Notes under the pieces: model-generated
The model's database searches: none
What the model was told of the DNA's origin: nothing
What the model saw: only the letters and a program-made list of their open reading frames with translations
Position numbers and translations under genes: made by a program
Shown here: one piece after another, positions 1-63,335 of the stretch
How positions within the stretch are numbered: the stretch's first letter is position 1
Layout: each line of letters opens with the position of its first letter
Origin: Dictyostelium discoideum
Lineage: Eukaryota
Assembly: GCA_000004695.1 (NCBI GenBank)
Contig: CM000150.2
Coordinates: 736,001 to 800,000 of the forward strand
Reading direction: 5' to 3'
DNA: 64,000 nucleotides

Positions 1-119
1 AATTTATACATATAATAAATAAATCACTGTTATATCTTCACCGCCACATTCATTCCTCTTAATTTTACCCTTTTTTTGCTCATTAAAGCAAGGGCTATCG
101 TCCTATATACTTTTCAACA

Positions 120-1328
120 ATGGCTGATGATCACTCAACTGAATTACAGTTAAATCATACAGATAACAACACGACCAATACAAATAATACCTCCACAACC
201 TCAACAACAAAAAATAAAAGTGCAAAAATCGACACACCTAAAAAACAAACCCCAACAAACCAACTCTCACTAAACAAAGGACTTGATAATCAATTAGATA
301 TCATTGCACCTCCATCAATCACAAGACCACTCTCTTTCTTAGAAAAAAACAATAACACCATCAACATTAAGTGTTACTTTAATCAACCACACATCCGTGA
401 AGAATTAACCTCAAAAGATGACACAAGAATTCAACAAATTCACAAAAACATTCACAAACTCTTCGAAGATATACTGTCGCCATCAGCATTCAAAATAATT
501 GGTGCAACTGCCTTCGTAAATTGCAACGTTGATAAATTAACTTCAATAATCAACCTTCAAAACCAACTTGCACTAAATATCGACAAACTCAACTATAGAT
601 TCGATATATCATCAAATGATTATGCAATCATTAAAACATTCATTAAAACGTACTCACCCAAACATGCAAACGATGCAATTACAAACAACCTCACTAAATT
701 CACCAGTTGTACATCAATTGAATCATTTACTGTCACATACTCATATGCTGTTGCGTTTAAAAGCTACATTATAACATATCATCTAATTGATCACACACAC
801 AACATTATTGATCAAAAGATCGAACAACCATCTGGTATCACAAGATATATCAAAGCTGCAACACGTAGTGTCACTAAACACAAAATTCAACATGCAAAAA
901 ATGCAGATATGGCAACAACTATAAAAAATGCCATCACAAACCCAAACATGAACAAAAACAATCAACCACCAAAAAACAACATTAACACCCCACCAATCAA
1001 CGAAATTGCAAATTCCAATCGCAATAATAACTCACTTCAAAATAGTGGTTCAAAAGCTATACTAAATGAATCACTTGATATTAACAATCAATCCCAAAAC
1101 AATAATGAAATTTCACACAAAAGTGATTCTTCAAATAATAATAACGGGAAAAACTCTTTATCAATGAGCAATCCAACCGATCCAACAATTGTACCACAAA
1201 AACCTCTACAATCTCAACCAAACAAACCAAGTGCACCAACTCCAAATACAATAAATACAAGAAGAAGCAGCAATGCCCTGACTACACAACCAGTCAATAC
1301 TGGTGCTGCCAAACCTAGTAAGGTATGA
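120..1328 (+). CDS. Retrotransposon ORF1 protein (N/T/Q-rich, nucleic-acid-binding-like)
   Basis: 402-aa ORF. Its TGA overlaps the ORF2 ATG (ATGA at 1325-1328), the typical LINE ORF1 position. Confidence 0.7.
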   Translation: MADDHSTELQLNHTDNNTTNTNNTSTTSTTKNKSAKIDTPKKQTPTNQLSLNKGLDNQLDIIAPPSITRPLSFLEKNNNTINIKCYFNQPHIREELTSKDDTRIQQIHKNIHKLFEDILSPSAFKIIGATAFVNCNVDKLTSIINLQNQLALNIDKLNYRFDISSNDYAIIKTFIKTYSPKHANDAITNNLTKFTSCTSIESFTVTYSYAVAFKSYIITYHLIDHTHNIIDQKIEQPSGITRYIKAATRSVTKHKIQHAKNADMATTIKNAITNPNMNKNNQPPKNNINTPPINEIANSNRNNNSLQNSGSKAILNESLDINNQSQNNNEISHKSDSSNNNNGKNSLSMSNPTDPTIVPQKPLQSQPNKPSAPTPNTINTRRSSNALTTQPVNTGAAKPSKV

Positions 1329-4300
1329 GCTCAAAAATCAACTTTATAACATGGAATTGTAGAGGATTCACTGAAAACCCAAACAATCAACACAATTCCT
1401 ACCAAAAAGCTGTTGACACACTACAACTACTTATATCAAAACTTCCACCTCGTCCAACAATCTCAATACTCACTGAACTCAATTCATCACCATTACAACT
1501 TAAACATGATTTTCCCGATCACATCATCTCTGTCACCAAACGAGGAAATGGTGTAATCATCATTAACCATAACCCAAACACACTCAAACTCAAACACATA
1601 TCAACAATTGATGGTAGAGCTATTTTAGCAGACGTTATATTTCCAAATCAATTACCAATTGGTATTCTTGGAATTTACGCACCAGCATCAAATAATACCA
1701 TCAAAAAGAATTCATATGCAACTTCACTACAAACACTTCTCCACAACCACTCAACAAACCCAATACCAAACCAATCCCAACATGTATCTATTATCGCAGG
1801 AGATTTCAACTGTATCCACAACGACAATTCACTATTAGATGATATTATCCAATCCTACACATACCAACACCATCTAATTGATCAAGGTGAATTTAAAAAC
1901 ACTCCAACTCATACACATGGCAACAGATTAGATAGAATATATACTCAATACAATAGAATAGACCCTGAAAATATATATACACAAGTCCACCAAATTCCAT
2001 CTTCATTATCAGATCATAATCCAATATCAACAACAATTTCTTCACCTTTTCAAATAAATAAACATAAGAAAAGATGGATATTATCACCTGGTACTGCAAA
2101 TGACCATGAAGCAATCAATATTATCAATCATTTAATAACTAATCACAATAACACATCAATCAATCAATTTACAAACTGGTCAAAAGTAAAATCAAAAATT
2201 ATAAAAACTCTAAAAAACTATCAATATAACAAAGACAAACAAACTCAACGTGCAAAACAAATACTATTAGAAAAAGCAGCAAAATTCAAACATCTTGAAG
2301 AACAATGCATCGCTGAATACAATATTATATGTAACAAAAACAAACTACATCAAAACCACACAAACATATTAAAAAAACATATAAATGGAGAAATACCTAG
2401 CAAGTATCTATCAGCAATACTAAACAAAAGATCAAAAGATGCAAAAATTGAATCAATCCAATATGGTAACATCATTACATCCGACCCCGACCAAATTGAA
2501 AATGCGTTTGTTGAATTCTACACAAATCTATATAGCTTACAAATATGTTGTCCAATTACTCACCAGCTCATGCCAAACACATGGCCCATCATAAAAAATG
2601 AATATTGGAATGGTTTAGACTCACCATTTATACAAGATGAAGTTGAAGCTGCAATTAAAACCTGTAACCCCAACAAATCACCCGGTCCAGATGGCGTTAC
2701 AAATGCATTCTACATTAATCATTTAAACCAAGTTAAACCAATTCTCACTACATTATTCAACGATATACTAGAAAATCCTCACCACATCACAACAGAATTC
2801 ACAGAAGGTCTTATACACACAATATACAAGAAAGGCAACCCCTTACTCATATCAAATCGTCGTCCCATTACACTTCTAAACACTGATTACAAGATCCTCT
2901 CAAAAGTAATCAATGCACGTCTTCTGAGAATACTTCCTTTCATCATCAACAACAACCAAACTGGTTTCGTACCCCACAGATTCATCATAGACAACATCAT
3001 CAACATCAATGAATTAATCAACTACCTCAAATCTAAAAACCTCCCTGGTATCATCACACTATTTGACTTCTTTAAAGCATTTGATTCTATCTCTCACGAT
3101 AGCATTAAAAGAACATTAATTCATATTGGTATACCAATAAAATTAATAAATTTAATCCACAAGCTATTATCTGACTCACAAGCAAAAATTTCAATTAATG
3201 GTAAAACGACCAGAAAATTCGATATTAAAAGAGGTGTAAAACAAGGTGACCCAATCTCAGCCACTTTATTTGTAATTGTAATTGAAATATTAGCAAGAAC
3301 AATAAATGCAGACAATTCAATAATTGGATTACCAATTTCACCCAATCCACAAATTAAAATTAAATTTACCCAATTTGCAGACGACTCTACAACATACAAC
3401 ATCAACTACGAACAACAACAACAATCAATCAAACATTTCGATAATTTCTGCGCTTCAACATCATCATCATTAAATTTTGACAAAAGTGCAATAATAGAAA
3501 TCAACCCCCACAAAATCACTGATAAACACATAATAAACAACATTCCACAATCAAAAAGAATACCAATAACCAAAAAAGATCAATCAGAAAGAGTTCTTGG
3601 CTATTTCTTTAATCATAATGGTTTACATAGGAAATTACCAGAAACAATGAAAACACTGATTAAATCATTAGTGCTATGGAAAACTAGTGGCACAACATTA
3701 AAAACAAAAACAACCATCATAAACACCTACTCACTATCACCAATAACATATTTATCATACCTTGAAGAATTTACAAAAGATGAAGAAATTCAAATTAATA
3801 AATTAATCTCATGGTTTATGAATTCTCCCGCAAATTCTGAATCACCAACTCTCGATACCAATTCCATTGAAAAAAACACATCAACCATCCATTCACGTGC
3901 AAAAATACCTTTGATGTGTTATGATAGATCATTAAAACCATTAAAAGAAGGTGGTTGGGGTATGTGGAATATACAATTACGACAAGTTGCTCAAAAGATT
4001 TGGATATACAACAGATTTTTACAAATGCATAAATCTGCAAACAATTCAATATACATGATAAGTTGGATGGATCAAATCATCAACAAATCAATCTCTTCTC
4101 CATACCTTATAAAAATCAAAAAAGAATGGGAAAACTATGCAACTCAAATTGGACATCTAAAAGATAAAGTTCAAATCCTACAACCAATATTAACAAAAAA
4201 CCAACCCTCTCAAACATTAAACACAAATAATATTTCACTACCACCAACACTCAAAGAAATCTACTCGACAATACTAAACAATCACCAATGCAAATCAAAA

Positions 4301-5152
4301 GACTATATTGGCAAGAAATATTCAGATCTACTTCTTACTTCGCACCAACAATCAATACAACTATTATGGAAATACACATACGACCAACTTTTTGTCAAAA
4401 TTCAAAAATTAAAAGATCCAAAAGGCCGAGATACAATGCAAAGATTCCATGCTAGATGTCTTCCGATTAATCATCTACACAACAAAGTTTGCCCCATTTG
4501 CAACAATGAAATGAATAATGATCCCTATGGTCATTTGTTCTTCAATTGTCAGCACACAATCAACTTCATTAACCACGACAAATTAAAATATTTTATATAT
4601 AAAAATTGCAATGGAAACAAAAACTGGTCACTAACAAAAAACCAAACAACAAAATTATACACACTCATTTATAAACCACAAACAAACAACAAAGCATTTA
4701 AACCAGATCCAACTATCAATATTAATTTTCATTTTGCAGAAAACGCACAATATAAAAAATACAGGTTCAACTGGAATTATATAAACACAAATCTTGATCT
4801 AGTCAGAACACATGCATATTGGAACATAATCTCATTAGTTATTCAACAAATATGGATATGGTTATGCAAATCATTATTTGACATCAATATAACTCAATCA
4901 ATTGATAATTGGAACAACCAAATAAACAACACAACACTAGATTATGATATATTAAAATCAAAATGGCACAAGCTAATAAGATTGGAATATTCAAGAACTT
5001 TATCAAACTTTAACCAATACTCAATTAAAAACAACCTCACAAAAACTCAAAAAGAAACCCAATGGTCCGAAACCATCAAAAAATTTAAAAAAGAATGGAG
5101 CATAAACACAAATGAACCAATTCCAACAATTACACCACCAATTAATTATTAA
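1325..5152 (+). CDS. Retrotransposon ORF2: apurinic-like endonuclease + reverse transcriptase + C-terminal Cys/His (zinc-finger-like) domain
   Basis: APE motifs (WNCRGF, IAGDFNC, RLDRIY, SDHNPIS). RT motifs (SPGPDG, FVPHRFIIDNI, LFDFFKAFDSISH, KRGVKQGDPIS, QFADDSTTY = YxDD variant). C-terminal HARCLPINHLHNKVCPICN...YGHLFFNCQHT. 1275 aa, intact. Confidence 0.9.
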   Translation: MSSKINFITWNCRGFTENPNNQHNSYQKAVDTLQLLISKLPPRPTISILTELNSSPLQLKHDFPDHIISVTKRGNGVIIINHNPNTLKLKHISTIDGRAILADVIFPNQLPIGILGIYAPASNNTIKKNSYATSLQTLLHNHSTNPIPNQSQHVSIIAGDFNCIHNDNSLLDDIIQSYTYQHHLIDQGEFKNTPTHTHGNRLDRIYTQYNRIDPENIYTQVHQIPSSLSDHNPISTTISSPFQINKHKKRWILSPGTANDHEAINIINHLITNHNNTSINQFTNWSKVKSKIIKTLKNYQYNKDKQTQRAKQILLEKAAKFKHLEEQCIAEYNIICNKNKLHQNHTNILKKHINGEIPSKYLSAILNKRSKDAKIESIQYGNIITSDPDQIENAFVEFYTNLYSLQICCPITHQLMPNTWPIIKNEYWNGLDSPFIQDEVEAAIKTCNPNKSPGPDGVTNAFYINHLNQVKPILTTLFNDILENPHHITTEFTEGLIHTIYKKGNPLLISNRRPITLLNTDYKILSKVINARLLRILPFIINNNQTGFVPHRFIIDNIININELINYLKSKNLPGIITLFDFFKAFDSISHDSIKRTLIHIGIPIKLINLIHKLLSDSQAKISINGKTTRKFDIKRGVKQGDPISATLFVIVIEILARTINADNSIIGLPISPNPQIKIKFTQFADDSTTYNINYEQQQQSIKHFDNFCASTSSSLNFDKSAIIEINPHKITDKHIINNIPQSKRIPITKKDQSERVLGYFFNHNGLHRKLPETMKTLIKSLVLWKTSGTTLKTKTTIINTYSLSPITYLSYLEEFTKDEEIQINKLISWFMNSPANSESPTLDTNSIEKNTSTIHSRAKIPLMCYDRSLKPLKEGGWGMWNIQLRQVAQKIWIYNRFLQMHKSANNSIYMISWMDQIINKSISSPYLIKIKKEWENYATQIGHLKDKVQILQPILTKNQPSQTLNTNNISLPPTLKEIYSTILNNHQCKSKDYIGKKYSDLLLTSHQQSIQLLWKYTYDQLFVKIQKLKDPKGRDTMQRFHARCLPINHLHNKVCPICNNEMNNDPYGHLFFNCQHTINFINHDKLKYFIYKNCNGNKNWSLTKNQTTKLYTLIYKPQTNNKAFKPDPTININFHFAENAQYKKYRFNWNYINTNLDLVRTHAYWNIISLVIQQIWIWLCKSLFDINITQSIDNWNNQINNTTLDYDILKSKWHKLIRLEYSRTLSNFNQYSIKNNLTKTQKETQWSETIKKFKKEWSINTNEPIPTITPPINY

Positions 5153-5515
5153 TTACCTAATCTAAAATAACATACTATTTTAAATTCACAAAAACTAAAA
5201 AACCTAAAATAAATAAATAAAAATAACATACTAATTGTATACTACAATAGTTTATTTATATCAAAAAAAAAAAAAAAAAATAAATCGGGTCAAGTGTTCG
5301 ATTCTTTAAAAAGTAAAATAATTATCTTTAATATTGCCATGATAAAAAAACCCGTACCGCGATCAAGAGGATACAAGATACACGTGAAAAGTAATTCATC
5401 CTTTTCTATCCTTAATCTCGGTCAATTTTAACCAATCTTTCAAAAAAAATCACCAATCCACCACGATCTACAGATCTAACTTACCAAATCGCCGATTCAA
5501 AGGAATCCCATCGAG

Positions 5516-6766
5516 ATGAATTCCTACGCAGACGCGGCTAAAATGGCCAACCCCTCCACCCATATGGACGAGGCATCGGAGAACTTCATTAAGGAATTCT
5601 CCACAAAAACAGCAGAGATAAAGGAGACCTACCCCAAACTATCAATAGGCCTCAAAGACATCTCCAAATACTGCGAGACCATATTGAACATGACTGCGCT
5701 CTCAACCTACGAGAAGAACAACGGATTCTACCCAATTACACTCGAATTCCCCAAAATGGATCTCAAGGGGTTAGAAGAAATGAGAAAAACACTCTCAAAC
5801 TACGATATCCCAATCGACAAGATATACATAGGCAAAGGAACTAGAAAAATGATCCACCTGATGATTAAAAACGAACAATCTCTCCTAAATATCATTAGAG
5901 ATAGAAGCAAATTGGGAACCTTCATCACCTCCAGTAGAGACTTCCACGTCCTCACAGGAAGAGTAAGAATTCCCAGAGAAAAGGCAGGAATAGTGGACGC
6001 CCTCATCAAAACTGCCTTTGCAGAAGAAATACCCTATGCAATATACAATACTATATACTCCACCGACCACCTCATAGTATTCGGTCTAATAGAATGCAAA
6101 ATAGGCGATCAAATGAAATCTGGCCAACACATTACAGAAATCGCAAACTTTACCATCAGAACGGCCACCAAAACCTACTCCTCACAAAAGAAAAACAAGA
6201 AAGTAGAGACAAACAACACGGAGGAACCATTAGAAGATGAGATGACAGATCCTCCTAACACCCAAAACAGGATAGCAATCAAATCCTCTCAACCAAAACC
6301 ACAACAACAAACAAACAACCCAGCAAACAATAAGTCTGATAAACAATCAACCCAAGAGAAAAAAGCCCAATCAAAAAAGTCCTCTCAACCTCTTCCCCCC
6401 AAAAACCAAGCAGAATCTCAATCTGTCAAACCCACCACAACCACTACCACAACATCCAACGCCATCCAAAAAGACAATGCCAACAAAACGAGCACTAACA
6501 TCCATTCATCCTCGGAAAACAGAGAGAAGACACCAAACATCCCTCCATCACATAAACGCAAGAACGAGGAAATCCACTCAAACAACGAGGTCACCCAACT
6601 CTCACCAACAATAAACAGAAGCAACCCTTACATCCCATCCACCCCTAAGACACCTGTCAAAAAAGAAAGGAAAGGAATCATTGAGAGCTTCATAGAGAGT
6701 ATCTACCCTTCACCATCCAAACCGCAGCTATACGACTCCCAAGAGGAGATCGATATCATCTCATAA
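5516..6766 (+). CDS. Retrotransposon ORF1 protein (copy 2)
   Basis: 416-aa ORF. Its stop TAA shares one base with the ORF2 ATG (TAATG at 6764-6768). Basic/Ser-Thr-rich C-terminus. Confidence 0.65.
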   Translation: MNSYADAAKMANPSTHMDEASENFIKEFSTKTAEIKETYPKLSIGLKDISKYCETILNMTALSTYEKNNGFYPITLEFPKMDLKGLEEMRKTLSNYDIPIDKIYIGKGTRKMIHLMIKNEQSLLNIIRDRSKLGTFITSSRDFHVLTGRVRIPREKAGIVDALIKTAFAEEIPYAIYNTIYSTDHLIVFGLIECKIGDQMKSGQHITEIANFTIRTATKTYSSQKKNKKVETNNTEEPLEDEMTDPPNTQNRIAIKSSQPKPQQQTNNPANNKSDKQSTQEKKAQSKKSSQPLPPKNQAESQSVKPTTTTTTTSNAIQKDNANKTSTNIHSSSENREKTPNIPPSHKRKNEEIHSNNEVTQLSPTINRSNPYIPSTPKTPVKKERKGIIESFIESIYPSPSKPQLYDSQEEIDIIS

Positions 6767-9540
6767 TGGTAGTAATCAAAATCAACCAATGGAATGTCAG
6801 AGGTTGGGGCACTGACACCTCCTTCAAAAACAAAACAGACTTTATCAAATCCCAATCCCCCCCAAACTCATTGGCACTAACCATAGTCAATGAACTCAAC
6901 GCCGACGCAACACAAGCACACCAGCTATTTCCTGGCTCCATCATTAGCGCAACCAACAGAGGCAACGGAATAGGAATACTAAACCACAACAACCAAAACA
7001 TAAAACTCTCACCAATATTCATAATAGAAGGTAGACTAATAATATCAGACATTCTAATAAAAGATACCACAACGAGAATCTTGGCCATATACGCCCCGGC
7101 CCAACCTGATAAAAGAAAAACACTAGCTTCAACACTAAACAAACACTTCAACAACCAATACCACAACCTAACGTCTAACCCTAATAAAAACATCGACATC
7201 ATAGCAGGCGACTTCAACTGTTTAGACTTCAATGACAATCACACATCAAATGATGACCAAGGCAACTTGACAACACAATCCCCAGATGAGATGGCCACAG
7301 TAATCGAAGCCATCAGAATTTCAAATAACCTAATGGATATGGACCAACTAAATAAAAGACCCACCTTCTCAAGAACGATACACAACACAAACAATAACCT
7401 CACAAGAATCTTGGAAAGGAGACTAGACAGAATATACCTTAACAATAGCATAATCAACTACAGCCAATTATACTTAAGGAACCTAATCCCCCCAAAAATT
7501 AATGACATACCTCTATCAGATCACAACTTCCTATCAACCACCTTCACTCTACCCAACATACAGATGAACAAGCGCAGATGGAGATTAAAAAAATCCTCAA
7601 TCCTCTCAAGCATAATGCTTAAGAAAATAGACTTCCTACTTAACGATTATTCAAGGGAGCTGTCATCCAACCATAACTCTATTTCCTTCTCTCAACTCAA
7701 CAGCTTACTAAACAAAATAAAACAACTATACACAGAATTTCAAAAACAAAATGACTACAACAATAAGGCAAACATCAAAAATCTAATCTCCCTACTAGAG
7801 ACAGAATTTAAAGACCAAGCCTTCGCAACCCTTTCAGCAATAAATGAATCTAAAAAAAGAGAAGAACAACTTAAACAAGAATTGAACAACTATTGCGAAG
7901 AAACCTCACTCAAGTACATCTCCGCGAGAATCAAGAAAAGACACAATGATTTCACCATCAACGCAGTAAAAGATGCACAAGGTAGAACAATCAACAAACA
8001 GGAATTGATCGAAGAAGAATACGTAAAATATTACTCAAATCTTTATGACTACAAAGAAGATGACCCACCATCTCATTATGAAATGTTGGAAAATTGGACA
8101 GTGACCAGGGACTCAACATGGGACAACCTTGAAAATGAATTCACATCACAAGAGATCCTAGAAGTAATAAAACAATTGAACCCACACAAATCTCCAGGCC
8201 CAGATGGAATTCCAAACTTATTCTACATAACACACAAAGAAAAACTAGCTCCAATACTGGCCTCAGCATTCAACGACACTCTAAGAAATCCTCATCTAAT
8301 TAGCAAAAATTACAAAGAAGGCCTCATTATCACGATACCTAAAAAGGGAGACCCCGAACTAATCAAAAACAGAAGACCAATTACACTGGCTAACTGTATA
8401 TATAAAATCCACTCAAAACTAATAAACAATAGAATAATCCCAATACTAACGAAAGTGATCAACCACAATCAAAAAGGTTTCGTACCAGGCAGATTCATTC
8501 TAGATAATATCATATCAATGAACGAATTAATCAACTATTGTAATGATAAAAGAATTAACGGAATAATTACACTATATGATTTCGAAAAAGCTTTTGACTC
8601 GATCTCACACGGTTCAATACTCAGATCACTACAACACATCAACATTCCAACCAATATAATCAACCTGATAATGAATCTACTCACCAAATCTGAAGCAAGA
8701 ATTGAAATTAATGGTAGAACTACTATACCCTTTGAGATCAAAAGAGGAGTTAAACAAGGAGATCCACTATCACCCACCCTGTTCGTCCTTGTAATAGAGG
8801 CTTTAGCTAGAAAAATTTTACAAGATGACCGAATTACTGGCCTTCCTCTAAACAACAGCAACCACAGAGAGAAATTCCAAAGCTTTGCAGACGACTCGGC
8901 TTCAATGGTCCCAGACTTTCAACAACTTGAATTAGTACTACAACACTTCAATTCATTTTGCAAAGCCACTTCCTCAAAACTAAACATCGACAAATCTTCA
9001 TCAATTCTTATAGGCAACCCAGACAATACCAACCAAAGAATTCCAATATCTACAAATCCAGAAAGATACTTGGGATACTTCTTCACAGGCAAAGGGATAA
9101 CAAGAAAAATGCCAGAAATATTAAACACAATAAGATCATCCTTAGTACTATGGAAAACCACTGACTCAACAATCAAAACCAAAACCAACATCCTCAAAGC
9201 ATTCGCACTCTCTAAATTAACCTACTATTCATATGTAGAGAACTTTAAGGAAGAGGAATTAAACCAAATCAATAAATTAGTCGAATGGTTTTTATCGGCA
9301 CCAAACAACAAAAATGCTAGTGGATTTCAAGTTATTAATTTAATGAGAACCAAAAGAGCAAGATACCCACTAAAAGTAGGGGGCTGGAACATTTGGAATA
9401 TAGAATTGAGACAACTGGCGCAGAAACTTTGGATCATAAACCAATTCATCCTAGCACTAGAAACCAAACAAACAAACTCATCTCATCACAAAAGCTGGGA
9501 ATATCAAATCCAAAAAACAAATTCACATCCAGATACCTAA
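6766..9540 (+). CDS. Retrotransposon ORF2 (copy 2), APE endonuclease + reverse transcriptase portion
   Basis: WNVRGW, IAGDFNC, RLDRIY, SDHNF (APE). SPGPDG, FVPGRFILDNI, LYDFEKAFDSISH, KRGVKQGDPLS, SFADDSAS (RT). Ends in a stop at 9540 after sequence that has diverged from copy 1. Confidence 0.85.
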   Translation: MVVIKINQWNVRGWGTDTSFKNKTDFIKSQSPPNSLALTIVNELNADATQAHQLFPGSIISATNRGNGIGILNHNNQNIKLSPIFIIEGRLIISDILIKDTTTRILAIYAPAQPDKRKTLASTLNKHFNNQYHNLTSNPNKNIDIIAGDFNCLDFNDNHTSNDDQGNLTTQSPDEMATVIEAIRISNNLMDMDQLNKRPTFSRTIHNTNNNLTRILERRLDRIYLNNSIINYSQLYLRNLIPPKINDIPLSDHNFLSTTFTLPNIQMNKRRWRLKKSSILSSIMLKKIDFLLNDYSRELSSNHNSISFSQLNSLLNKIKQLYTEFQKQNDYNNKANIKNLISLLETEFKDQAFATLSAINESKKREEQLKQELNNYCEETSLKYISARIKKRHNDFTINAVKDAQGRTINKQELIEEEYVKYYSNLYDYKEDDPPSHYEMLENWTVTRDSTWDNLENEFTSQEILEVIKQLNPHKSPGPDGIPNLFYITHKEKLAPILASAFNDTLRNPHLISKNYKEGLIITIPKKGDPELIKNRRPITLANCIYKIHSKLINNRIIPILTKVINHNQKGFVPGRFILDNIISMNELINYCNDKRINGIITLYDFEKAFDSISHGSILRSLQHINIPTNIINLIMNLLTKSEARIEINGRTTIPFEIKRGVKQGDPLSPTLFVLVIEALARKILQDDRITGLPLNNSNHREKFQSFADDSASMVPDFQQLELVLQHFNSFCKATSSKLNIDKSSSILIGNPDNTNQRIPISTNPERYLGYFFTGKGITRKMPEILNTIRSSLVLWKTTDSTIKTKTNILKAFALSKLTYYSYVENFKEEELNQINKLVEWFLSAPNNKNASGFQVINLMRTKRARYPLKVGGWNIWNIELRQLAQKLWIINQFILALETKQTNSSHHKSWEYQIQKTNSHPDT

Positions 9541-10469
9541 AAGAGAACTTAGACGAATGGAACAAAATAAGAATCAAAAAAGCAATCTTCAACAATAATC
9601 TCACATCCATAAAAAACGAAAATGGACAACCACTTTCACTGGCAGAATGGTATACCACAATTCAAGACCAAAATCCAACCATCCCTAAAACGGAATTCCA
9701 ATCATCTCTAAACTTAAGAGGCTACAGCTATAATCAACTCTTCAACAACATACTGAAGATAAAAGACCCTAAAACAAGAGACACAATGTTTAGATTCCAT
9801 GCCAGATGCCTTCCAATAAACTACCTTCACAACAAACAATGCCCACTCTGCAAAGAAGATATGAGCAAAGACCCATACGGTCACCTGTTCTTCTCATGCA
9901 AGAAAACAAAACAATTCATAAAAATAAATAAACTCAAAAATTTCATCTATATTACCACAGGAAAAGGTAAAAACTGGCATCATACAAGAATTAGGCAAAA
10001 TAACAATTTCATTAATAGAATAACTCCAAAATTATCACCGACAGCCAAAAAAGATCAAGAAGTGAATGCAGATTACGCCAACCACAGATTCCACAAAGAA
10101 TACTTTGAATGGAACTATAAAGCAATAGACTATGATCTAACCAGATCATTCGCATATAGAAACCTAATGGCCCTTATCCTCCACAACATTTGGATTTGGA
10201 TTTGCAATCAAATATACAGTGAAGATCCTTTAACAAATGAATCATTATCATACAGCTCCCTTCTAAAGAAATGGCACAAATTGGCCACTCTAGAATACAT
10301 CAAAAAAGCAAAAGATCTGAAAAACTTATCAGCAAAAGACCATAATAATTTCAAAGATCCTAAGATCCTTCTCACCTCAACGATCAAGCTAAGAAAAACA
10401 ACAGCTAATTACTATTGTATTCCAGAATCATCTCTCCCAAATATTATATCTTTTGATCAATTCATATGA
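9393..10469 (+). CDS. Retrotransposon ORF2 (copy 2) C-terminal segment in a shifted frame (apparent frameshift; Cys/His motif HARCLPINYLHNKQCPLCK...YGHLFFSCKKT)
   Basis: Homology to copy 1's ORF2 C-terminus resumes in another frame (SRYLKENLDEWNKI vs SPYLIKIKKEWENY). The frame switch lies between ~9450 and 9525. Confidence 0.6.
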   Translation: MEYRIETTGAETLDHKPIHPSTRNQTNKLISSQKLGISNPKNKFTSRYLKENLDEWNKIRIKKAIFNNNLTSIKNENGQPLSLAEWYTTIQDQNPTIPKTEFQSSLNLRGYSYNQLFNNILKIKDPKTRDTMFRFHARCLPINYLHNKQCPLCKEDMSKDPYGHLFFSCKKTKQFIKINKLKNFIYITTGKGKNWHHTRIRQNNNFINRITPKLSPTAKKDQEVNADYANHRFHKEYFEWNYKAIDYDLTRSFAYRNLMALILHNIWIWICNQIYSEDPLTNESLSYSSLLKKWHKLATLEYIKKAKDLKNLSAKDHNNFKDPKILLTSTIKLRKTTANYYCIPESSLPNIISFDQFI

Positions 10470-10567
10470 TTAAAATAACCCTTCAGCTTAAATGATAAGC
10501 CTATAAATAAATATTAAATAAAAACTCGTATTAACACAGATGGACATATATCAATCTTGTTAATCCA

Positions 10568-10603
<36 letters not shown>

Positions 10604-10952: not shown

Positions 10953-13568
10953 TTAAATATTTAATCTTATAAATTCTAAAATAAAATCAATATTTTTATA
11001 AATTTTACCATTTGAATTTGTTTTATTACAATTCATTTTATAATCTGAAAATGATTTTATAAATTGATTTATTTCGTGATTTGTAACTAAGCTATATTGG
11101 CAATCATAAACTGTACGTCGAGGGTATAACTGATAATCTTTTAAAAATCTTTTAATATTATCAATTGATAATGTCGAAAATACACTATTAATATCATAAA
11201 TATAATTAAAATATGATTTTCCTCTTGGTATTGATAAAGGATCATTGTGATTCCAACATGTAAATTCTATTTGGTCTGGTTTTAAAATTCCATTTAAAAT
11301 TTTTGATTCTAAAAACTTATCAAATTTATAATTTCTTTCTAAATTATTACTTATTATTAATTGTATTGAAGCCATTTGATGATCATGATTTGTTGAAAGA
11401 ATTAAATTATTTGTAATTATAATTTTATTAAATGTATAATTAATTAAATCCCAATCATTTGTTTCACTAAACTTTTGTAATGATTGGTTATTAAATTTAA
11501 AACCTAATTCTTCATAAAGATACTTTGCAGTTTTTAATGATTTTGAATAATTTATATAAGAATTTATACCTTTACAACCAATATTATCAAAACAGAATTT
11601 TACAAGTTCTAAATTATCTTTTTCAATAAAATTTGAATAAACTTGTTTACTACCCCAATCAGTAAATAAATTATTAAAGTTATTAAAAAAATATTTAAAT
11701 AAGGTTGGATTATTAATTAAAAGCATTGAGTTTAATTGTTTTTTAATACCACCATTTAAGAAATAATTCTGATTATTATTTTTAATAAATATACCTAGTT
11801 CATTCATAAATTCAATTGTTACATTTAAATCTGAATCTTGAATAACACTTTTAAGAACTTGAATTCTTTCATTCTCTGTTGAAAAACCAGAATTAATATT
11901 ATAAAGAGTACCTAAAAAATTCAATTTTTGTTTAATTGAAAATTCTTTATAACAATTTAATGGTATATTATAATCGAATTCCTCATCCAATTCTAAAAGT
12001 GATCCATCATCAAAACCTGGAAATAATTGATTTAACATTCCAAATAAAATTGAGTCATAATTAATTTTTGAACAATTTAAAATTATTCTAAATAATGAAT
12101 GATTTGTTAATTTATATTTATTTAATATTTCATTTTTATTATTAAAGAATTCCTTTTTAATTTTATCATATTCTTTATACTCTGAATAAAATTGAATAAT
12201 TAAACAAACAATTCTATGTTGCCAATCCATATCATTTTCAAATCCATTAATTCTTTTTAAAAAATCAAAAATAAAAATTCTTTTAATTTCTCTTTCGAAA
12301 TCAAAATTATTAAAATTAATTTCTAAAAGTTTTTCATGTGATGAATATTTTGAAATTAATTTTTTAATAAAATTATTTGAATTTTTATAATCTTTATCAA
12401 TTTCTTTTTCTTTATTATTATTTATTGTATTATAATTATTATTATATTCAATTAATTTATTAATTTTTTTAAAAATTAATTCAAAAATTGTTGTTGAAAT
12501 ATTATTTGATAAATTATTATTATTATTATTAATTCCCACAAACACCAAAGATTTAAAATAATTTAAAAATTGATTAAATGGTGAAATTTCATTACTATCT
12601 TTTAATGATAATGGTGAAATTTCATTTAATAGTAAACTAATAAATTCTTCAAATGGTTGATCATTAATTTTTAAACTTTTAATTAAATTATTATTTGAAG
12701 ATATTAATTTTTTAAAAATATTAAATTCTAATTTCATAATATATGTATTGAATTCAACAAAAATTGACCTAACCAATGATTGTGGAAATAAAGGATCATT
12801 TGATTTATAACCAATTTCATCTAATAAAAAAGTTACTACATTATCTCTATTATCCGATAATAAACTATAATATAATAATTTTTCATAATCATCATCGTCA
12901 TTAAATTTTAATTGAAATGAATTAAATAATAATTTTATAATCTCTAAATTTCCAAGTTTTAATGAAATTTTAAAAAAATCTTTTAAATCTTTTTCAATAT
13001 CAATATTATTATTATTTTGGGTGGTTGAAGATGATGATGATAAATAATCATTAAAAATCAATTTGACAAAATATGGATTTTGTGTTAAAATTGAAAAAGG
13101 TAAAATTCCAAAACTTTTAAAATAAGTTCCTTTGTGTGAATAATGATATGTTTTTAATCTTGAACTATTTGATTTATAGAATTTTTCTAATAGTTGATCT
13201 CCATCTTCAATGATGGTATGTAGAGTTATTATTAATTCTCTTAATATTAAATAATTTGAAATTTCATATTCATCCCATTGAAAATTAATTTTAATTTTAT
13301 CTTTTAATAGTTCATAATTCTTTGTTGTAAATATCCAACTTAAAGTTGCCTCTCCATATCCTCTTCTATTAATTGGTGTTATGAATTCATTAAAATCCAA
13401 TAATGTTGTACTAATTGGGAGTCCATTAAAATCATATAATTTTGTTTTTTGAATTGTCAAACAATTTCCTTGTTTTTCTTTATTTATAATTTTTACAAAT
13501 TTATATATTTTTTTTAATAAATATTTATTATCAAAAACTTCTTTAAATAATTTATAATTTATATCCAT
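10953..13568 (-). CDS. Hypothetical protein, 871 aa, no recognisable catalytic motifs (Dictyostelium-type orphan, N/K/I-rich)
   Basis: Long uninterrupted minus-strand ORF with ATG at 13568. It sits between retroelement sequences and the tRNA-Asn gene. Confidence 0.5.
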   Translation of the reverse strand: MDINYKLFKEVFDNKYLLKKIYKFVKIINKEKQGNCLTIQKTKLYDFNGLPISTTLLDFNEFITPINRRGYGEATLSWIFTTKNYELLKDKIKINFQWDEYEISNYLILRELIITLHTIIEDGDQLLEKFYKSNSSRLKTYHYSHKGTYFKSFGILPFSILTQNPYFVKLIFNDYLSSSSSTTQNNNNIDIEKDLKDFFKISLKLGNLEIIKLLFNSFQLKFNDDDDYEKLLYYSLLSDNRDNVVTFLLDEIGYKSNDPLFPQSLVRSIFVEFNTYIMKLEFNIFKKLISSNNNLIKSLKINDQPFEEFISLLLNEISPLSLKDSNEISPFNQFLNYFKSLVFVGINNNNNNLSNNISTTIFELIFKKINKLIEYNNNYNTINNNKEKEIDKDYKNSNNFIKKLISKYSSHEKLLEINFNNFDFEREIKRIFIFDFLKRINGFENDMDWQHRIVCLIIQFYSEYKEYDKIKKEFFNNKNEILNKYKLTNHSLFRIILNCSKINYDSILFGMLNQLFPGFDDGSLLELDEEFDYNIPLNCYKEFSIKQKLNFLGTLYNINSGFSTENERIQVLKSVIQDSDLNVTIEFMNELGIFIKNNNQNYFLNGGIKKQLNSMLLINNPTLFKYFFNNFNNLFTDWGSKQVYSNFIEKDNLELVKFCFDNIGCKGINSYINYSKSLKTAKYLYEELGFKFNNQSLQKFSETNDWDLINYTFNKIIITNNLILSTNHDHQMASIQLIISNNLERNYKFDKFLESKILNGILKPDQIEFTCWNHNDPLSIPRGKSYFNYIYDINSVFSTLSIDNIKRFLKDYQLYPRRTVYDCQYSLVTNHEINQFIKSFSDYKMNCNKTNSNGKIYKNIDFILEFIRLNI

Positions 13569-13620: not shown

Positions 13621-13820
13621 TTTTTTTTTTTTTTTTTTTTTTATTTTTAAAATTGGTTCCATTTGATTTGATTATAACCAATATTATCAAAACAAAATTT
13701 TACAAGTTCTAAACTACCATCAATAATAAAAATAGAAAAAATTTGTTCACTACCCCAATCAGCAAATAAATTTTTGAAATTATTAAAAAAATATTTAAAT
13801 AAGGTTGGATTATTAATTTT
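13621..13820 (-). repeat. Retro-copied 145-bp fragment of the 10953-13568 CDS (copy of 11578-11718) preceded by a T30 tract; part of a chimeric retroelement insertion
   Basis: 13676-13820 is ~90% identical to 11578-11718. It is flanked by T-runs (13621-13650 and 13825-13852). Confidence 0.6.
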
Positions 13821-13821
13821 T

Positions 13822-13824
<3 letters not shown>

Positions 13825-13857
<33 letters not shown>

Positions 13858-13958
13858 TGGATTAACAAGATTGATATATGTCCATCTGTATTTATAGGCT
13901 TATCATTTAAGCTGAAGGGTTATTTTAATCATATGAATTGATCAAAAGATATAATAAT
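13825..13958 (-). mobile_element. 5'-truncated TRE fragment (3' UTR + poly(A), minus orientation) identical in sequence to the 3' end of TRE copy 2 (10449-10603)
   Basis: T28 followed by the exact reverse complement of 10449-10572 (aatattggattaacaagattgatatatgtccatctg...catatgaattgatcaaaagatat). It lies ~75-200 bp downstream (in tRNA orientation) of tRNA-Asn. Confidence 0.8.
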
Positions 13959-13992
13959 TTTTAATTTTTAATTGTTTAATAAAACTATTCAA

Positions 13993-14005
13993 AGAGTCGA
14001 ACCCT
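13993..14005 (-). promoter_or_regulatory. External B-box (ex-B box) downstream of tRNA-Asn: AGGGTTCGACTCT on the tRNA strand, next to a 7-bp inverted repeat (AACCCTT/AAGGGTT)
   Basis: Matches the pol III B-box consensus GGTTCGANTCC ~30 nt past the tRNA 3' end. A T4 terminator (cgaaATTTTg) lies right after the tRNA. Confidence 0.55.
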
Positions 14006-14032
14006 TGATTTAAGGGTTGTTCAACAAAATTT

Positions 14033-14105
14033 CGCCTAGACATGGGATCGAACCATGGACCTAGCGGTTAACAGCCGCTCGCTCTGCCTACTGAGCCATC
14101 CAGGC
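14033..14105 (-). tRNA. tRNA-Asn (anticodon GUU), 73 nt, no intron
   Basis: Reverse complement GCCTGGATGGCTCAGTAGGCAGAGCGAGCGGCTGTTAACCGCTAGGTCCATGGTTCGATCCCATGTCTAGGCG folds as a cloverleaf: 7-bp acceptor stem (one G-U), D-stem GCTC/GAGC, anticodon stem AGCGG/CCGCT with loop CTGTTAA, T-stem CATGG/CCATG with TTCGATC loop, discriminator G. Confidence 0.9.
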
Positions 14106-14149
14106 ATTTTTGATGAAAATTGTAATATTTAAATGATATTGTATGTAAA

Positions 14150-14509
14150 AACACAAACCATCTACAAATTGCACTAGTAGCCAATTTAATAGCTATTATA
14201 TTCGAAAAAATCTGGCACAAAAGAAATAAACTCATTCATGATGAAAAAGAAATAATAATTCACAGACAACAAGTCATACGTGAACTAATTAAAACACAAA
14301 GAGCTGCATGGGACAGGACACAAGCGGTTATAAACAAAACATTAAGAATCAAATCAAAGCAACGGCCAGAAGAACAAAATAAATTAGACTCACTAATCTC
14401 GCTAAAGCTATTACAATTTAGCAGACAATGGAACTCACCTCTTCACGCAATAGAACTTCCTAAACATCTCAAAAAATACAATAATTCACTCAGTACTTTC
14501 TATAAATAA

Positions 14510-14563
<54 letters not shown>

Positions 14564-14569
14564 GGAACC
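14150..14569 (+). mobile_element. 5'-truncated non-LTR retroelement fragment (ORF2 C-terminal remnant + 3' UTR + ~55-nt poly(A)) directly upstream of tRNA-Asn in divergent orientation
   Basis: Open frame ...LIAIIFEKIWHKRNKLIHDEKEIIIHRQQVIRELIKTQRAAWDRTQ...KHLKKYNNSLSTFYK* resembles TRE ORF2 C-termini. Long A-tract at 14512-14569. It starts ~45 bp from the tRNA 5' end. Confidence 0.55.
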
Positions 14570-14699
14570 CAAGTTAATCAGAAAATTTCCAGATTTTTAA
14601 CTTTTTAAAGAAAAATAAAAAAAATAGAAAGAAAATAAAATGAAAATCACAAACAACACCACAAATATTAAGCTACACAAATGCCTACAAAAAATAAGC

Positions 14700-14854
14700 G
14701 AAATTGTGGATAAAACTCAATTAAAAAAAAAACAATTCAAATACGTCATAAACATCAATCACGAACCAGACGATAAAATAAAAAAAGATTTAGAAAAAAG
14801 TTTGAACAAAAAAGATGTTTTAATCAAAAGTAATAATACATTCAAAATTCGAAA

Positions 14855-14902
<48 letters not shown>

Positions 14903-15300
14903 TAAACCAACCCCTCTTTTAGAGACCCTGTAAAAAAAAAAAAAATAAAATAAAATAAAATGAGATCTAGCATCTCAAGGAGAAGCAAATAATAATTGCG
15001 TTATCCAATTCAAAAAAAAAAGTATGTAAAAACACTCAAATAAAACAATTCAAATATGTCAATCGCGAAGCAGACGATAAATAAGATTAGAAAAAGGTTT
15101 GGACAAAAAGATGTTTAAATCAAAAGTATTAAAAAAAAGTAAACACCCCCTCTTTTAGAGACCCTGTAAAAAATATTACAAATAAAATGAGATCCAGCAT
15201 CTCAAGGAGAAGAAAATAATAATTGAGTTATCCAATTATTCAAAAAAAAAAAAAAGTATGTAAAAAATTCAATTCCTTTTGTCTTTGAAGAAAATGTGAT
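14700..15300 (+). repeat. Tandem, degenerate ~230-330-bp repeat units each beginning near gtatgtaaaaaca and ending in an A-run (unit 14700-15020, unit 15021-15256, partial third)
   Basis: 14715-14990 aligns with 15033-15240 (caattcaaata[c/t]gtca...gacgataaa...gatgttt[t]aatcaaaagta...cctcttttagagaccctgtaaaaa...atgagatc[t/c]agcatctcaaggagaag.aaataataattg.gttatccaatt). The listed ORF 14640-14933 lies inside a unit and is not a gene. Confidence 0.6.
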
Positions 15301-16354
15301 GGTTCTTTACATTATTAAAATTAGTAACTCAATTATTATAATTATTTATTTCCAAAATTAGTTATTAGAAATTATATATTCTTAAACCAGAATATTACTA
15401 CAAATAAAATATGTTAAACAAATAAATAAATAATTGATTAATTAATTAATTAAATAAATTAAATTATTTTAAATTATTAAAGTTATATAAATAAAATAAG
15501 ATATTCATTAAATTCAAAATAAAAATAAAAAAAAATTATTTTTTTAATTCAGAAGAAAAAAAAAAAAAAAAAAAAATAATAACAAAATATTAATAAATAA
15601 AAAAAAAAAAAAAAAATAAATAAAAAAAAAAGAATTTTATTCTTCTATTTGGATTTTAAATTAGATATTTTAAAAAAAAAAAAAAAAATTAAAAAAAAAA
15701 TTCCCACTTGCGTGTGAATTATTTTTTTATAATAACTTAAAATGGTTACTAACATCAGATCTTGACATTTATAGACAGATTCACATGTCATTTTTTTTTT
15801 TCCTGGCAAATTTAATTTAAAAAAATAAAAATTAAATTAAAAAAAATTAATTTTTAAAAATAAATTTATTTTTCAAATTCGGTTTGAGAAAATAATATTA
15901 TTTTTAATTTTTTTTAATTTTTTTTTTTAAAAATAGAATATTACAAAGGTTTATTATCAACATCAACAACTTATAAAATGGTATCAACAAAATGGTTTTT
16001 TACAGTAAAACTGAAAATAGAACCTAACATTATATGATTACAACTTAAATATTTTTGGTTTTAAATTAAATAATCCCTCCCACTTTTATTTTAAAACTTA
16101 TTTGATCCACAAACACACAAACATTTTTTTACCCAGGGGGAAATAGATTTTTTATTTTTTTTATTTTTTTTTTTTTTTTTTTTTTTTTTTCGTCAACGAG
16201 TCCATATTTTTTATTTTTAATTATTTTTTTTGGAAATATAAATTAATTTTTTTTTTCTTGTTCATTTATTTTTATTTATAGAATTAAATAATATATTAAA
16301 AAAAAAAAAAAAAAAAAAAATTAATTTATTTTTTAAAAAAAAAAAAAAAAAAAA

Positions 16355-62096: not shown

Positions 62097-63005
62097 ATGG
62101 AACGAATGATAAATTATTTCTCTCCTTCAAAGGGAACAAAAAAACTTCAAAATGCTGTCAACGATCCAAATATAGATCAAGGATTACCATCTCATATTTT
62201 GCTTGTTAAAGTTATTGATCAGGGTAATAATAGAACTGGAAATAAAATAAGAAGAAAATTGTATAGATTTATGAAAGACACAAATAATGTTGGGGGTAGA
62301 ATTTGGTATCCAAGAGATCATGCCGAAACCTCTCAAATATATTGGGGATTCTTTGGACAGGATATTATAACTCAAGCATGGGCAGTAAACTTAATTTTGG
62401 ACTTTGAACGTTCAACGAAAATCTCTATCCCAGGAAATTGGAGATTTACTGTGGTTTTATCTAAACCTGTGGTGGATTCTGATGTAATCGGTAACCTATT
62501 AAACAAATTTAATTTCGAAGAAAACGAATTCGCCAAATTGAAAGAAGATTTTAGTGAGTTGAGCAATGCCTATGAACAACTAAAAAAAGAAGTCAAAGAA
62601 AATGAACAACTAAAAAAACAAGTCATAGAAAATGAACAACTAAAAAAAGAAGTAAAAGAAAATGAACAACCAAAAAAAGAAGTCATAGAAAATGAAAAAC
62701 CAAAAAAAGAAGTCATAGAAAATGAACAACTAAAAAAAGAAGTCATAGAAAATGAACAACCAAAAAAAGAAGTCAAACAAAATGAACAACTAAAAAAAGA
62801 AGTCAAAGAAAATGAACAACCAAAAAAACAAGTCAAAGAAAATGAAAAACCAAAAAAAGAAGTCATAGAAAATGAACAACTAAAAAAAGAAGTCAAACAA
62901 AATGAACAACCAAAAAAACAAGTCAAAGAAAATGAACAACTGAAAAAAGAAGTCAAGGAAAATGAAAAACCCAATAATTTTTCTTTTTCTGTTAAAAAAG
63001 AATAA
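62097..63005 (+). CDS. Hypothetical protein with N-terminal globular region and ~13 tandem 11-residue repeats (K-K-E/Q-V-K/I-E-N-E-Q/K-L/P-K)
   Basis: 302-aa ORF. Near-perfect 33-bp tandem DNA repeats at 62575-62975 (aaaaaagaagtcaaagaaaatgaacaactaaaa variants). Confidence 0.6.
   Translation: MERMINYFSPSKGTKKLQNAVNDPNIDQGLPSHILLVKVIDQGNNRTGNKIRRKLYRFMKDTNNVGGRIWYPRDHAETSQIYWGFFGQDIITQAWAVNLILDFERSTKISIPGNWRFTVVLSKPVVDSDVIGNLLNKFNFEENEFAKLKEDFSELSNAYEQLKKEVKENEQLKKQVIENEQLKKEVKENEQPKKEVIENEKPKKEVIENEQLKKEVIENEQPKKEVKQNEQLKKEVKENEQPKKQVKENEKPKKEVIENEQLKKEVKQNEQPKKQVKENEQLKKEVKENEKPNNFSFSVKKE
62575..62975 (+). repeat. 33-bp tandem repeat array (~12-13 units) within the CDS
   Basis: Direct reading of the sequence. 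Units differ only at 2-4 positions (gaa/caa, aaa/ata, cta/cca, caa/aaa). Confidence 0.9.
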
Positions 63006-63335
63006 AATTAAATAAAATTTTCTATTGGTATAGAAATTTATTATGCCTTTTAGGTATGATCACTTACATATTTCAAAAAACATCTACTCTTTTTAACTTA
63101 TTATAATTGTGAAAACAATATCAAAAAAAACAAAATTTTTTTTTTTCTTTTATTAATCAAATTTGTAATTTTTTGAAAAAAAAAGAATAATAATAATATT
63201 ATAATTAAAATAATTTAAAAATTAAAAAAAATTAAATAAAATTAAATATATTATTTCTTTTGATATAGATTTTTATGAAATTTTTTACTTGGGGGAAAAT
63301 TTTATTTATATTATTATTATTTTTTTTTTTTATAA

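Follow-up and report, generated by a model that had tools for sequence, protein, structure and literature searches.

The single tRNA gene in the 64-kb window (the whole stretch of DNA analysed, from chromosome 1 of Dictyostelium discoideum AX4, G+C ~20–25%) is a minus-strand tRNA-Asn(GUU) gene recovered by both ARAGORN and Rfam. It is accompanied by an external B box (ex-B) and flanked by the remains of non-long-terminal-repeat (non-LTR) retrotransposons, one of TRE3 type downstream and two of TRE5-A type upstream (Table 1). We are confident, with little reservation, that this gene, predicted to be functional, has served three times as a landing site for tRNA-gene-targeted non-LTR retrotransposons. 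The three insertions are independent: each has a target-site duplication (TSD), a 3′ end with an A-tail and a 5′ truncation, and at least two of them are polymorphic between isolates. A first-pass annotation of this stretch had proposed a tRNA with an ex-B box and with TRE3-type and TRE5-type fragments at family-typical positions and orientations, and each of these elements is upheld here, as is the proposal that both polymerase III-guided integration windows are occupied at one tRNA gene, a kind of double occupancy that is common (PMC5006619).

ARAGORN placed the gene at 14032–14106 with anticodon GTT, and Rfam RF00005 matched 14105→14033 over the full length of the model with 64.3 bits (E 1.2e-11; gathering score 29), a covariance-model result that bears out the canonical tRNA-Asn(GUU) described previously. 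The identity therefore stands as first given, to which the minus-strand orientation is added as a correction; since the gene lies on this strand, "downstream" means lower coordinates throughout. The A box TGGCTCAGTAG fits the consensus TRRYNNARYNG of D. discoideum tRNA genes, and the internal B box GTTCGATCC fits the B box consensus GTTCRANNC (both PMC5391098). The T4 run at 14029→14026 is likely the RNA polymerase III (Pol III) terminator, a role that we infer, and runs of T3–T7 follow the tRNA in 14 of the 14 sampled tRNA genes. A TTTCAAAAAT-like motif lies directly upstream of +1 at most of the sampled tRNA genes (L001–L007, see below), and the window version at positions 14106–14115, next to the G at +1, is TTTTCATCAAAAAT. 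This motif is probably the known Dictyostelium tRNA 5′-flank consensus.

Seven further D. discoideum loci (L001–L007) were obtained via TRE-encoded proteins and then scanned for tRNA genes; the sample of tRNA genes used for the ex-B and terminator counts comprised 14 genes. A divergent D. discoideum isolate (L009, GCA_054859385.1) supplied the syntenic locus; the flanks there are ~94% identical to the window, with which the locus is collinear from position 15384 onward, and its orthologous tRNA-Asn gene is 100% identical. The same locus in GCA_054883475.1 (L008) is 99.6% identical to the window with the same element content, and is therefore uninformative on insertion polymorphism. Repeats were sought with dust-filtered blastn, an earlier whole-window repeat search having been dominated by low-complexity AT repeats. 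Exact-sequence look-up of four TRE open reading frames (ORFs) in a protein collection returned no match, and homology searches gave matches named only "hypothetical protein", so that the databases supplied no TRE subfamily names.

Table 1 Features at the tRNA-Asn(GUU) locus, in window coordinates, ordered from the downstream to the upstream side of the gene.
Feature	Position	Strand	Basis
TRE3 TSD, distal copy TTAAAAATTAA	13813..13823	-	direct reading
5′-truncated TRE3-type 3′ end, 137 bp = 108 bp + A29 (13824-13852)	13824..13960	-	blastn; orientation of the tRNA
TRE3 TSD, tRNA-proximal copy TTAAAAATTAA, 11 bp	13961..13971	-	direct reading
ex-B block TCAAGGGTTCGACTCTTTGAAT, 22 nt	13987..14008	-	motif match; unchanged in L009
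ex-B core GTTCGACTC	14002->13994	-	starts at +31; 30 nt between core and tRNA 3′ end
7-bp inverted repeat AACCCTT-AAATC-AAGGGTT	14000..14018	-	arms 14018-14012 / 14006-14000; 5-nt loop AAATC
TTTT run at +4..+7 within trailer AAATTTT	14026..14029	-	direct reading
tRNA-Asn(GUU) gene, 73 nt including discriminator G	14033..14105	-	Rfam, ARAGORN
Internal B box GTTCGATCC, tRNA positions 53-61	14045..14053	-	direct reading, motif match
A box TGGCTCAGTAG, tRNA positions 8-18	14088..14098	-	direct reading
TSD copy 1 GTATGTAAAAACAC, 14 nt, between tRNA and TRE5-A copy 1	14141..14154	+	direct reading
TRE5-A copy 1 (younger), 5′-truncated, 867 bp	14155..15021	+	alignments to L004, L002, L007
Copy 1: ORF2 3′ end, last 117 codons	14155-14505	+	alignment
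Copy 1: A-run	14512-14559	+	part of the element, not a separate tail
Copy 1: B-module, 296 bp	~14560-14855	+	match to L004 5′ region
Copy 1: A-run	14856-14900	+	part of the element, not a separate tail
Copy 1: presumed C-module, 111-bp terminal block	14901-15011	+	common to copies in L001-L007
Copy 1: oligo(A), A10	15012-15021	+	distal to the tRNA
TSD copy 2, common to both TRE5-A insertions	15022..15035	+	14-nt version repeated
TRE5-A copy 2 (older, more truncated), 222 bp: partial B-module, C-module, oligo(A) A14 (15242-15255)	15034..15255	+	blastn
TSD copy 3 GTATGTAAAAA, then original upstream flank	15256..15266	+	motif count

The ex-B core is a perfect match, on the tRNA strand, to both B-box motifs of the Winckler laboratory, GTTCRANNC and GTTCRAnYC (PMC5391098, PMC3159450), and the second B box previously noted ~30 nt past the tRNA 3′ end was quoted correctly as AGGGTTCGACTCT. 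According to published figures, 66% of tRNA genes have an external B box ~41 bp downstream (PMC3159450), or ~80% have one (PMC5911963). Across the whole window the B-box motif shows no excess (9 observed against 8.05 expected from shuffles), and three matches are of the GTTCGA type: the internal B box, the ex-B box and an orphan ex-B at 5296–5304. A strict B box starts between +25 and +37 in 7 of the 14 sampled tRNA genes, with a one-mismatch version in one more, and the probability of a chance match on the correct strand within such a 13-nt window is ~8e-4. The window-wide count is not raised, yet the position recurs, so that the signal lies in the position. The 22-nt ex-B block is also identical in L009, though the adjoining 17-nt spacer is almost wholly different there, and the sequence past the block carries indels between the window and L009. 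This conservation between isolates supports a putative function without identifying which, and we regard the ex-B box as most likely an additional, predicted TFIIIC binding site under purifying selection.

The same figures bear on the alternative that the ex-B-like motif is a chance match, or the inert and functionless relic of a decayed tRNA half. Its chance-level frequency across the window speaks for such an origin, and the flank ATC-N4-GTTCGA, which echoes the GTC signature of internal B boxes (PMC3159450), would suit descent from a T-arm; but the motif falls in the same narrow tRNA-strand interval as in seven of the sampled genes, the 22-nt block survives unchanged beside a scrambled spacer and between flanks of ~94% identity, and the ex-B region gives no tRNA-like Rfam match even at E ≤10. 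We therefore consider a chance match or relic very unlikely, and retain the ex-B box as a predicted TFIIIC site. The same absence of tRNA-like signal led us to reject the view that the ex-B box belongs to a degenerate tRNA. A recurrent signature, ATC(G/A)(C/A)A(G/A)G (as in ATCGCAGGTTCGA and ATCAAGGGTTCGA), precedes the ex-B cores in the window and in L001, L002, L004, L006 and L007; the resemblance of this ATC-type flank to the GTC-N4-GTTCRAnYC of internal B boxes hints that ex-B boxes may descend from T-arm regions.

The 7-bp inverted repeat that had been noted around the ex-B box is present, and its second arm overlaps the first 3 nt of the ex-B core, but it is not statistically distinct: its folding energy as single-stranded DNA is −5.5 kcal/mol (z −1.29), a value equalled or bettered by 25 of 200 dinucleotide shuffles. 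The 17-nt spacer (window 14003–14025 compared with L009 9407–9424) differs at nearly all positions between the two isolates, whereas the tRNA and the ex-B block are identical. The L009 spacer forms a hairpin of its own (CCTTGA/TCAAGG, z −2.9), in which the conserved 3′ arm is used again but pairs in a shifted register, and spacer-plus-ex-B segments have a negative fold z-score at 8 of 9 loci (mean z ~−1.5). Part of this hairpin signal arises because the palindromic TCGA of the B box pairs with the recurrent upstream ATCG. We treat the negative z-scores as a weak, unexplained hint; the divergence of the spacer could come from gene conversion by a paralogue or from selection on structure. That the DNA between terminator and ex-B is selected for hairpin potential rather than for sequence seems to us quite unlikely; if true, the ex-B would belong to a structured element, which might for instance form a cruciform or act as a backup terminator or a boundary, and would not be a bare TFIIIC site.

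On the downstream side, the TRE tail that had been placed ~75 bp from the tRNA at a TRE3-like position is real: the fragment begins after 72 intervening nt and has the orientation of the tRNA. Published insertions of TRE3 lie 40–150 bp downstream of a tRNA gene and share its orientation (PMC5911963), with a distance range of 14–228 bp for TRE3-A (PMC5006619 Table 1). The fragment matches, at 97–99% identity, the 3′ terminus of a full-length plus-strand element of the window (~5340–10603) and copies in L001 and L002, and its sole notable difference from the full copies is a 20-bp deletion. The full-length relative encodes ORF1 (5516–6766) and an ORF2 that starts at 6766 in the −1 frame and contains Exo_endo_phos and RVT_1 domains (RVT_1 E 2.8e-33), and it ends in an A31 tail. 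L009 has no TRE3 tail here and only one copy of the target sequence (AATCAAAAATTAATAATCC), which is a classic empty site. The copy of this family in L001 starts 58 nt after an intron-containing tRNA gene (Asn according to ARAGORN, although by eye it looks like Tyr-GTA) and that in L002 starts 61 nt after a tRNA-Thr gene, both in the orientation of the tRNA. Full copies of the family measure ~5.23 kb without the tail, closer to the consensus length of TRE3-A (5229 bp) than to those of TRE3-B (5279 bp) or TRE3-C (4734 bp) (PMC5006619 Table 1), and the downstream fragment would thus probably belong to subfamily TRE3-A.

A different arrangement was seen in L006, where a TRE3-B-like copy (~15800–15905) is opposite in orientation to a minus-strand tRNA-Phe gene (15906–15979), its poly(A) tail facing the tRNA 3′ end ~50 nt downstream, past a near-consensus ex-B GTTCGATCT. 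The orientation of this copy conflicts with the review statement that TRE3 elements share the orientation of the tRNA.

Two B boxes could have set the position of the TRE3 insertion: the internal box, which starts 93 bp from the 5′ junction of the fragment, and the ex-B box, whose core is 42 bp from that junction. Positioning by the ex-B box is possible, if somewhat unlikely in our judgement. TRE3 is able to target either box (PMC5911963), and TRE3-A-like copies start 37–44 bp past the ex-B core at three ex-B-bearing sites, namely the tRNA-Asn locus (42 bp), the orphan ex-B at 5296 (44 bp) and L002 (37 bp). However, the four TRE3-type copies start 79–93 bp from an internal B box, and these include the copy in L001, which lies at 79 bp from the internal B box of a tRNA gene without ex-B; the ex-B box is therefore not needed to explain the TRE3 position. 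The published rule of ~100 bp past a B box likewise suits the internal box here and not the ex-B. Judging from these distances, the internal B box alone can explain where the TRE3 fragment lies.

The upstream side is more complex than the single retroelement tail that the first-pass annotation had placed ~45 bp from the gene. A retroelement does lie at this position (46 nt from tRNA +1 for the older copy, 49 nt for the younger), but there are two successive 5′-truncated TRE5-A copies at one target site, and it is a truncated 5′ end, not a tail, that abuts the tRNA, the oligo(A) being distal. The TRE5-A copies and the tRNA occupy opposite strands (plus and minus, respectively), so that the 5′ ends of the elements face the 5′ end of the tRNA. 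In L003, L006 and L007, copies of the same family likewise turn their 5′ end towards a tRNA gene from ~50 bp upstream, and in L002, L004 and L005 they are upstream in that orientation as well. These placements match published work, in which TRE5 elements insert 44–54 bp upstream in the opposite orientation (PMC5911963), the 5′ end of TRE5-A always faces the 5′ end of the tRNA (PMC5391098), and the distance range of TRE5-A is 37–90 bp (PMC5006619 Table 1).

The younger copy aligns without interruption to copies elsewhere, 14336–15021 with L002 (687 bp, 95.5%) and 14155–15021 with L004 (868 bp, 93.9%) and with L007, in each case straight through both A-runs. These unbroken alignments show the internal A-runs to be part of the ORF2-B-C structure of TRE5-A and not separate tails. 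Window positions 14510–14850 are 97% identical to L004 8158–8497, a segment that lies at the 5′ end of a longer copy and spans the start of its 444-aa first gene at 8287, and the same L004 element also has a 3′ copy of the B-module. The surviving 117 ORF2 codons are 97–99% identical to annotated Dictyostelium fragments, one of them carrying the UniRef name "Reverse transcriptase z...". From its position we infer that the block at 14901–15011 is the C-module. Folding of the last 54 nt of this block gives stem-loops (−11.3 kcal/mol, z −3.1) that 0 of 200 shuffles equal, and stem-loops have been reported for the C-module. The older copy is 83% identical to 14893–15039 and matches the C-modules in L001–L007.

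The subfamily is assigned from this module architecture. TRE5-A is organised as AB-ORF1/ORF2-BC, and the duplicated 3′ B-module is specific to it (PMC3159450); a duplicated B-module that covers the start of ORF1 therefore indicates TRE5-A. An early idea that the fragment was TRE5-B, taken from an ORF2 stop directly before an A-run, was rejected when the alignment was found to continue through the A-runs into the B- and C-modules. Distance and orientation would allow TRE5-B or TRE5-C equally, as all three subfamilies integrate alike in both respects (PMC3159450; PMC5006619 Table 1), but neither TRE5-B nor TRE5-C has the 3′ B-module, which in the window fragment is 97% identical to the ORF1-start region in L004, and TRE5-B also lacks the C-module (PMC3159450); assignment of the upstream fragments to either of these two is in our view extremely unlikely.

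The TSDs record two TRE5-A events at one site. The motif GTATGTAAAAA occurs three times in the window (14141, 15022 and 15256) against 0.23 expected, and 0 of 100 shuffles reach three copies. With the younger insertion, 14 bp were duplicated (GTATGTAAAAACAC), among them the first 3 nt of the older copy. TRE5-A copy 1 is absent from L009. At the same target site L009 has a different TRE5-A derivative (8868–9210), bordered by the same GTATG(T/C)AAAA target. Two A-module-like repeats are followed in this derivative by an A-run, a C-module and oligo(A), and the C-module is closer to that of the older AX4 copy (15034–15255) than to that of the younger one. In addition, ~70 bp (AAAAATTGCCTACCCCAATTT...GAAATTTCAT) with TTTCAT-like flanking repeats are inserted in L009 7 bp upstream of tRNA-Asn +1 (~9247–9316), and this insertion displaces the TRE5-A derivative to ~118 bp from the tRNA.

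Taken together, the data argue for three local insertions around one tRNA gene. The fragments might instead have come along with the tRNA by segmental duplication or rearrangement, a history that finds some support in the recurrence of the same trio (TRE5-A fragment, tRNA with ex-B, and TRE3-A-like element) at the tRNA-Thr gene in L002. We give it next to no credence, since each insertion has its own TSD of local sequence, L009 lacks both the TRE3 tail and TRE5-A copy 1 and has the target sequence in single copy, and the junctions in L002 differ from those in the window. Several points nevertheless weigh against three targeted insertions at a functional gene, or against parts of that account. 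Expression of the tRNA gene is a prediction, as is TFIIIC binding to the ex-B box; the label TRE3-A is taken solely from full-copy length and abundance, and the TRE5-A assignment from module architecture and not from alignment to a consensus. Conservation of the ex-B was seen in the L009 orthologue and at other tRNA species, none of them a tRNA-Asn(GUU) paralogue; metagenome scans with the tRNA-Asn 3′ half gave no match and hence no further tRNA-Asn loci. Finally, the internal B box and the ex-B box lie a fixed ~50 bp apart, so that the box used by TRE3 as reference is inseparable at this locus.

Published work suggests how three local insertions could have come about. TFIIIC on the A and B boxes would place TFIIIB upstream of the gene, the TRE5-A ORF1 protein would contact TFIIIB subunits, and the TRE5-A endonuclease would nick ~48 bp upstream of the tRNA gene. 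Target-primed reverse transcription would then copy the RNA from its 3′ end, with frequent early abort leaving 3′ fragments, and TRE3 would use a different contact, inserting ~80–100 bp past a B box. The ORF1 protein of TRE5-A has been reported to bind TFIIIB, and integration to require an intact B box (PMC5391098, PMC3159450, PMC5006619).

Each part of the locus has close counterparts in systems already described. TRE5-A (formerly DRE) has the same 3′ order of ORF2 end, B-module (duplicating the ORF1 start region), C-module and oligo(A), and the same placement, with the 5′ end facing the tRNA 46–49 bp from +1, 5′ truncation and short TSDs; there is no substantive difference, the window copies being dead 3′ remnants of 867 and 222 bp that lie one behind the other at a single target site. 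Within the TRE3 family (TRE3-A to -D), the window fragment corresponds to the 3′ end and poly(A) of a two-ORF element with apurinic/apyrimidinic endonuclease (APE) and reverse transcriptase (RT) and an ORF2 in the −1 frame. It shares the downstream site (72 nt), the orientation and the TSD, but retains only 108 bp plus the tail, with the 20-bp deletion. The ex-B box resembles other D. discoideum ex-B boxes in being a solitary GTTCRAnYC motif that has the strand of the tRNA, lies a few tens of bp beyond the gene and lacks tRNA context; it differs in that its core starts at +31 (+25 to +37 in the sample) compared with the published ~41 bp, or with ~100 bp from the internal box as given in one review. 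The yeast elements Ty3 and Ty1 likewise find safe integration sites by way of DNA-bound TFIIIC/TFIIIB, but are LTR elements with an integrase and integrate upstream only, and in the yeast ETC sites solitary B boxes bind TFIIIC without a gene, as a likeness to ex-B. To our knowledge, yeast has no counterpart to downstream targeting of the TRE3 type or to a B box that regularly accompanies each tRNA gene.

Other parts of the window carry further traces of these families and of local duplication. An 871-aa ORF at 10953–13568 on the minus strand was identified as DDB_G0267740 of D. discoideum AX4 by exact-sequence look-up. Between this gene and the TRE3 tail, a 147-bp segment (13672–13818) is 88% identical to 11572–11718 inside DDB_G0267740 on the same strand, and the equivalent intergenic space in L009 (9645–9848) holds a fragment resembling the 3′ end of DDB_G0267740 (window 10995–11210); from their similarity, these intergenic fragments look like the decayed remains of a tandem paralogue. 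Positions 1–10603 hold a tandem pair of full-length plus-strand non-LTR elements with APE and RT. The first (1–5280, at least 5264 bp) has a length that fits TRE3-B, and the second (~5340–10603, ~5.23 kb) is TRE3-A-like with an ORF2 frameshift near 9393–9540. They are separated by the orphan ex-B GTTCGATTC at 5296–5304, which is now >5 kb from its tRNA. L009 is without both elements, and its empty site consists of a tRNA-Thr(AGU) gene (12947–13018), then the ex-B, then the flank. It follows that the target tRNA-Thr gene must lie just before the start of the window, and that the first tandem element inserted between this gene and its ex-B, ~15 nt past the tRNA. At the far end of the window, a repeat search found fourteen tandem copies of a 30-bp unit (62482–63067, up to 95% identical), mostly within an ORF at 62097–63005.

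At least one TRE accompanies 61% of D. discoideum tRNA genes, and both TRE5 and TRE3 are present at 13% (PMC5006619); given roughly 400 tRNA genes, the locus would be one among roughly fifty that are doubly occupied. Targeting of tRNA genes by TRE5 and TRE3, the ex-B box and double occupancy are all already documented for D. discoideum, so that this is a textbook example with little significance beyond annotation. The comparison between isolates nevertheless adds a small piece of evidence for purifying selection on the ex-B box, and the locus offers a clean teaching example of tRNA-gene targeting, with three datable insertions that each have their own duplication and an isolate that keeps the empty TRE3 site.

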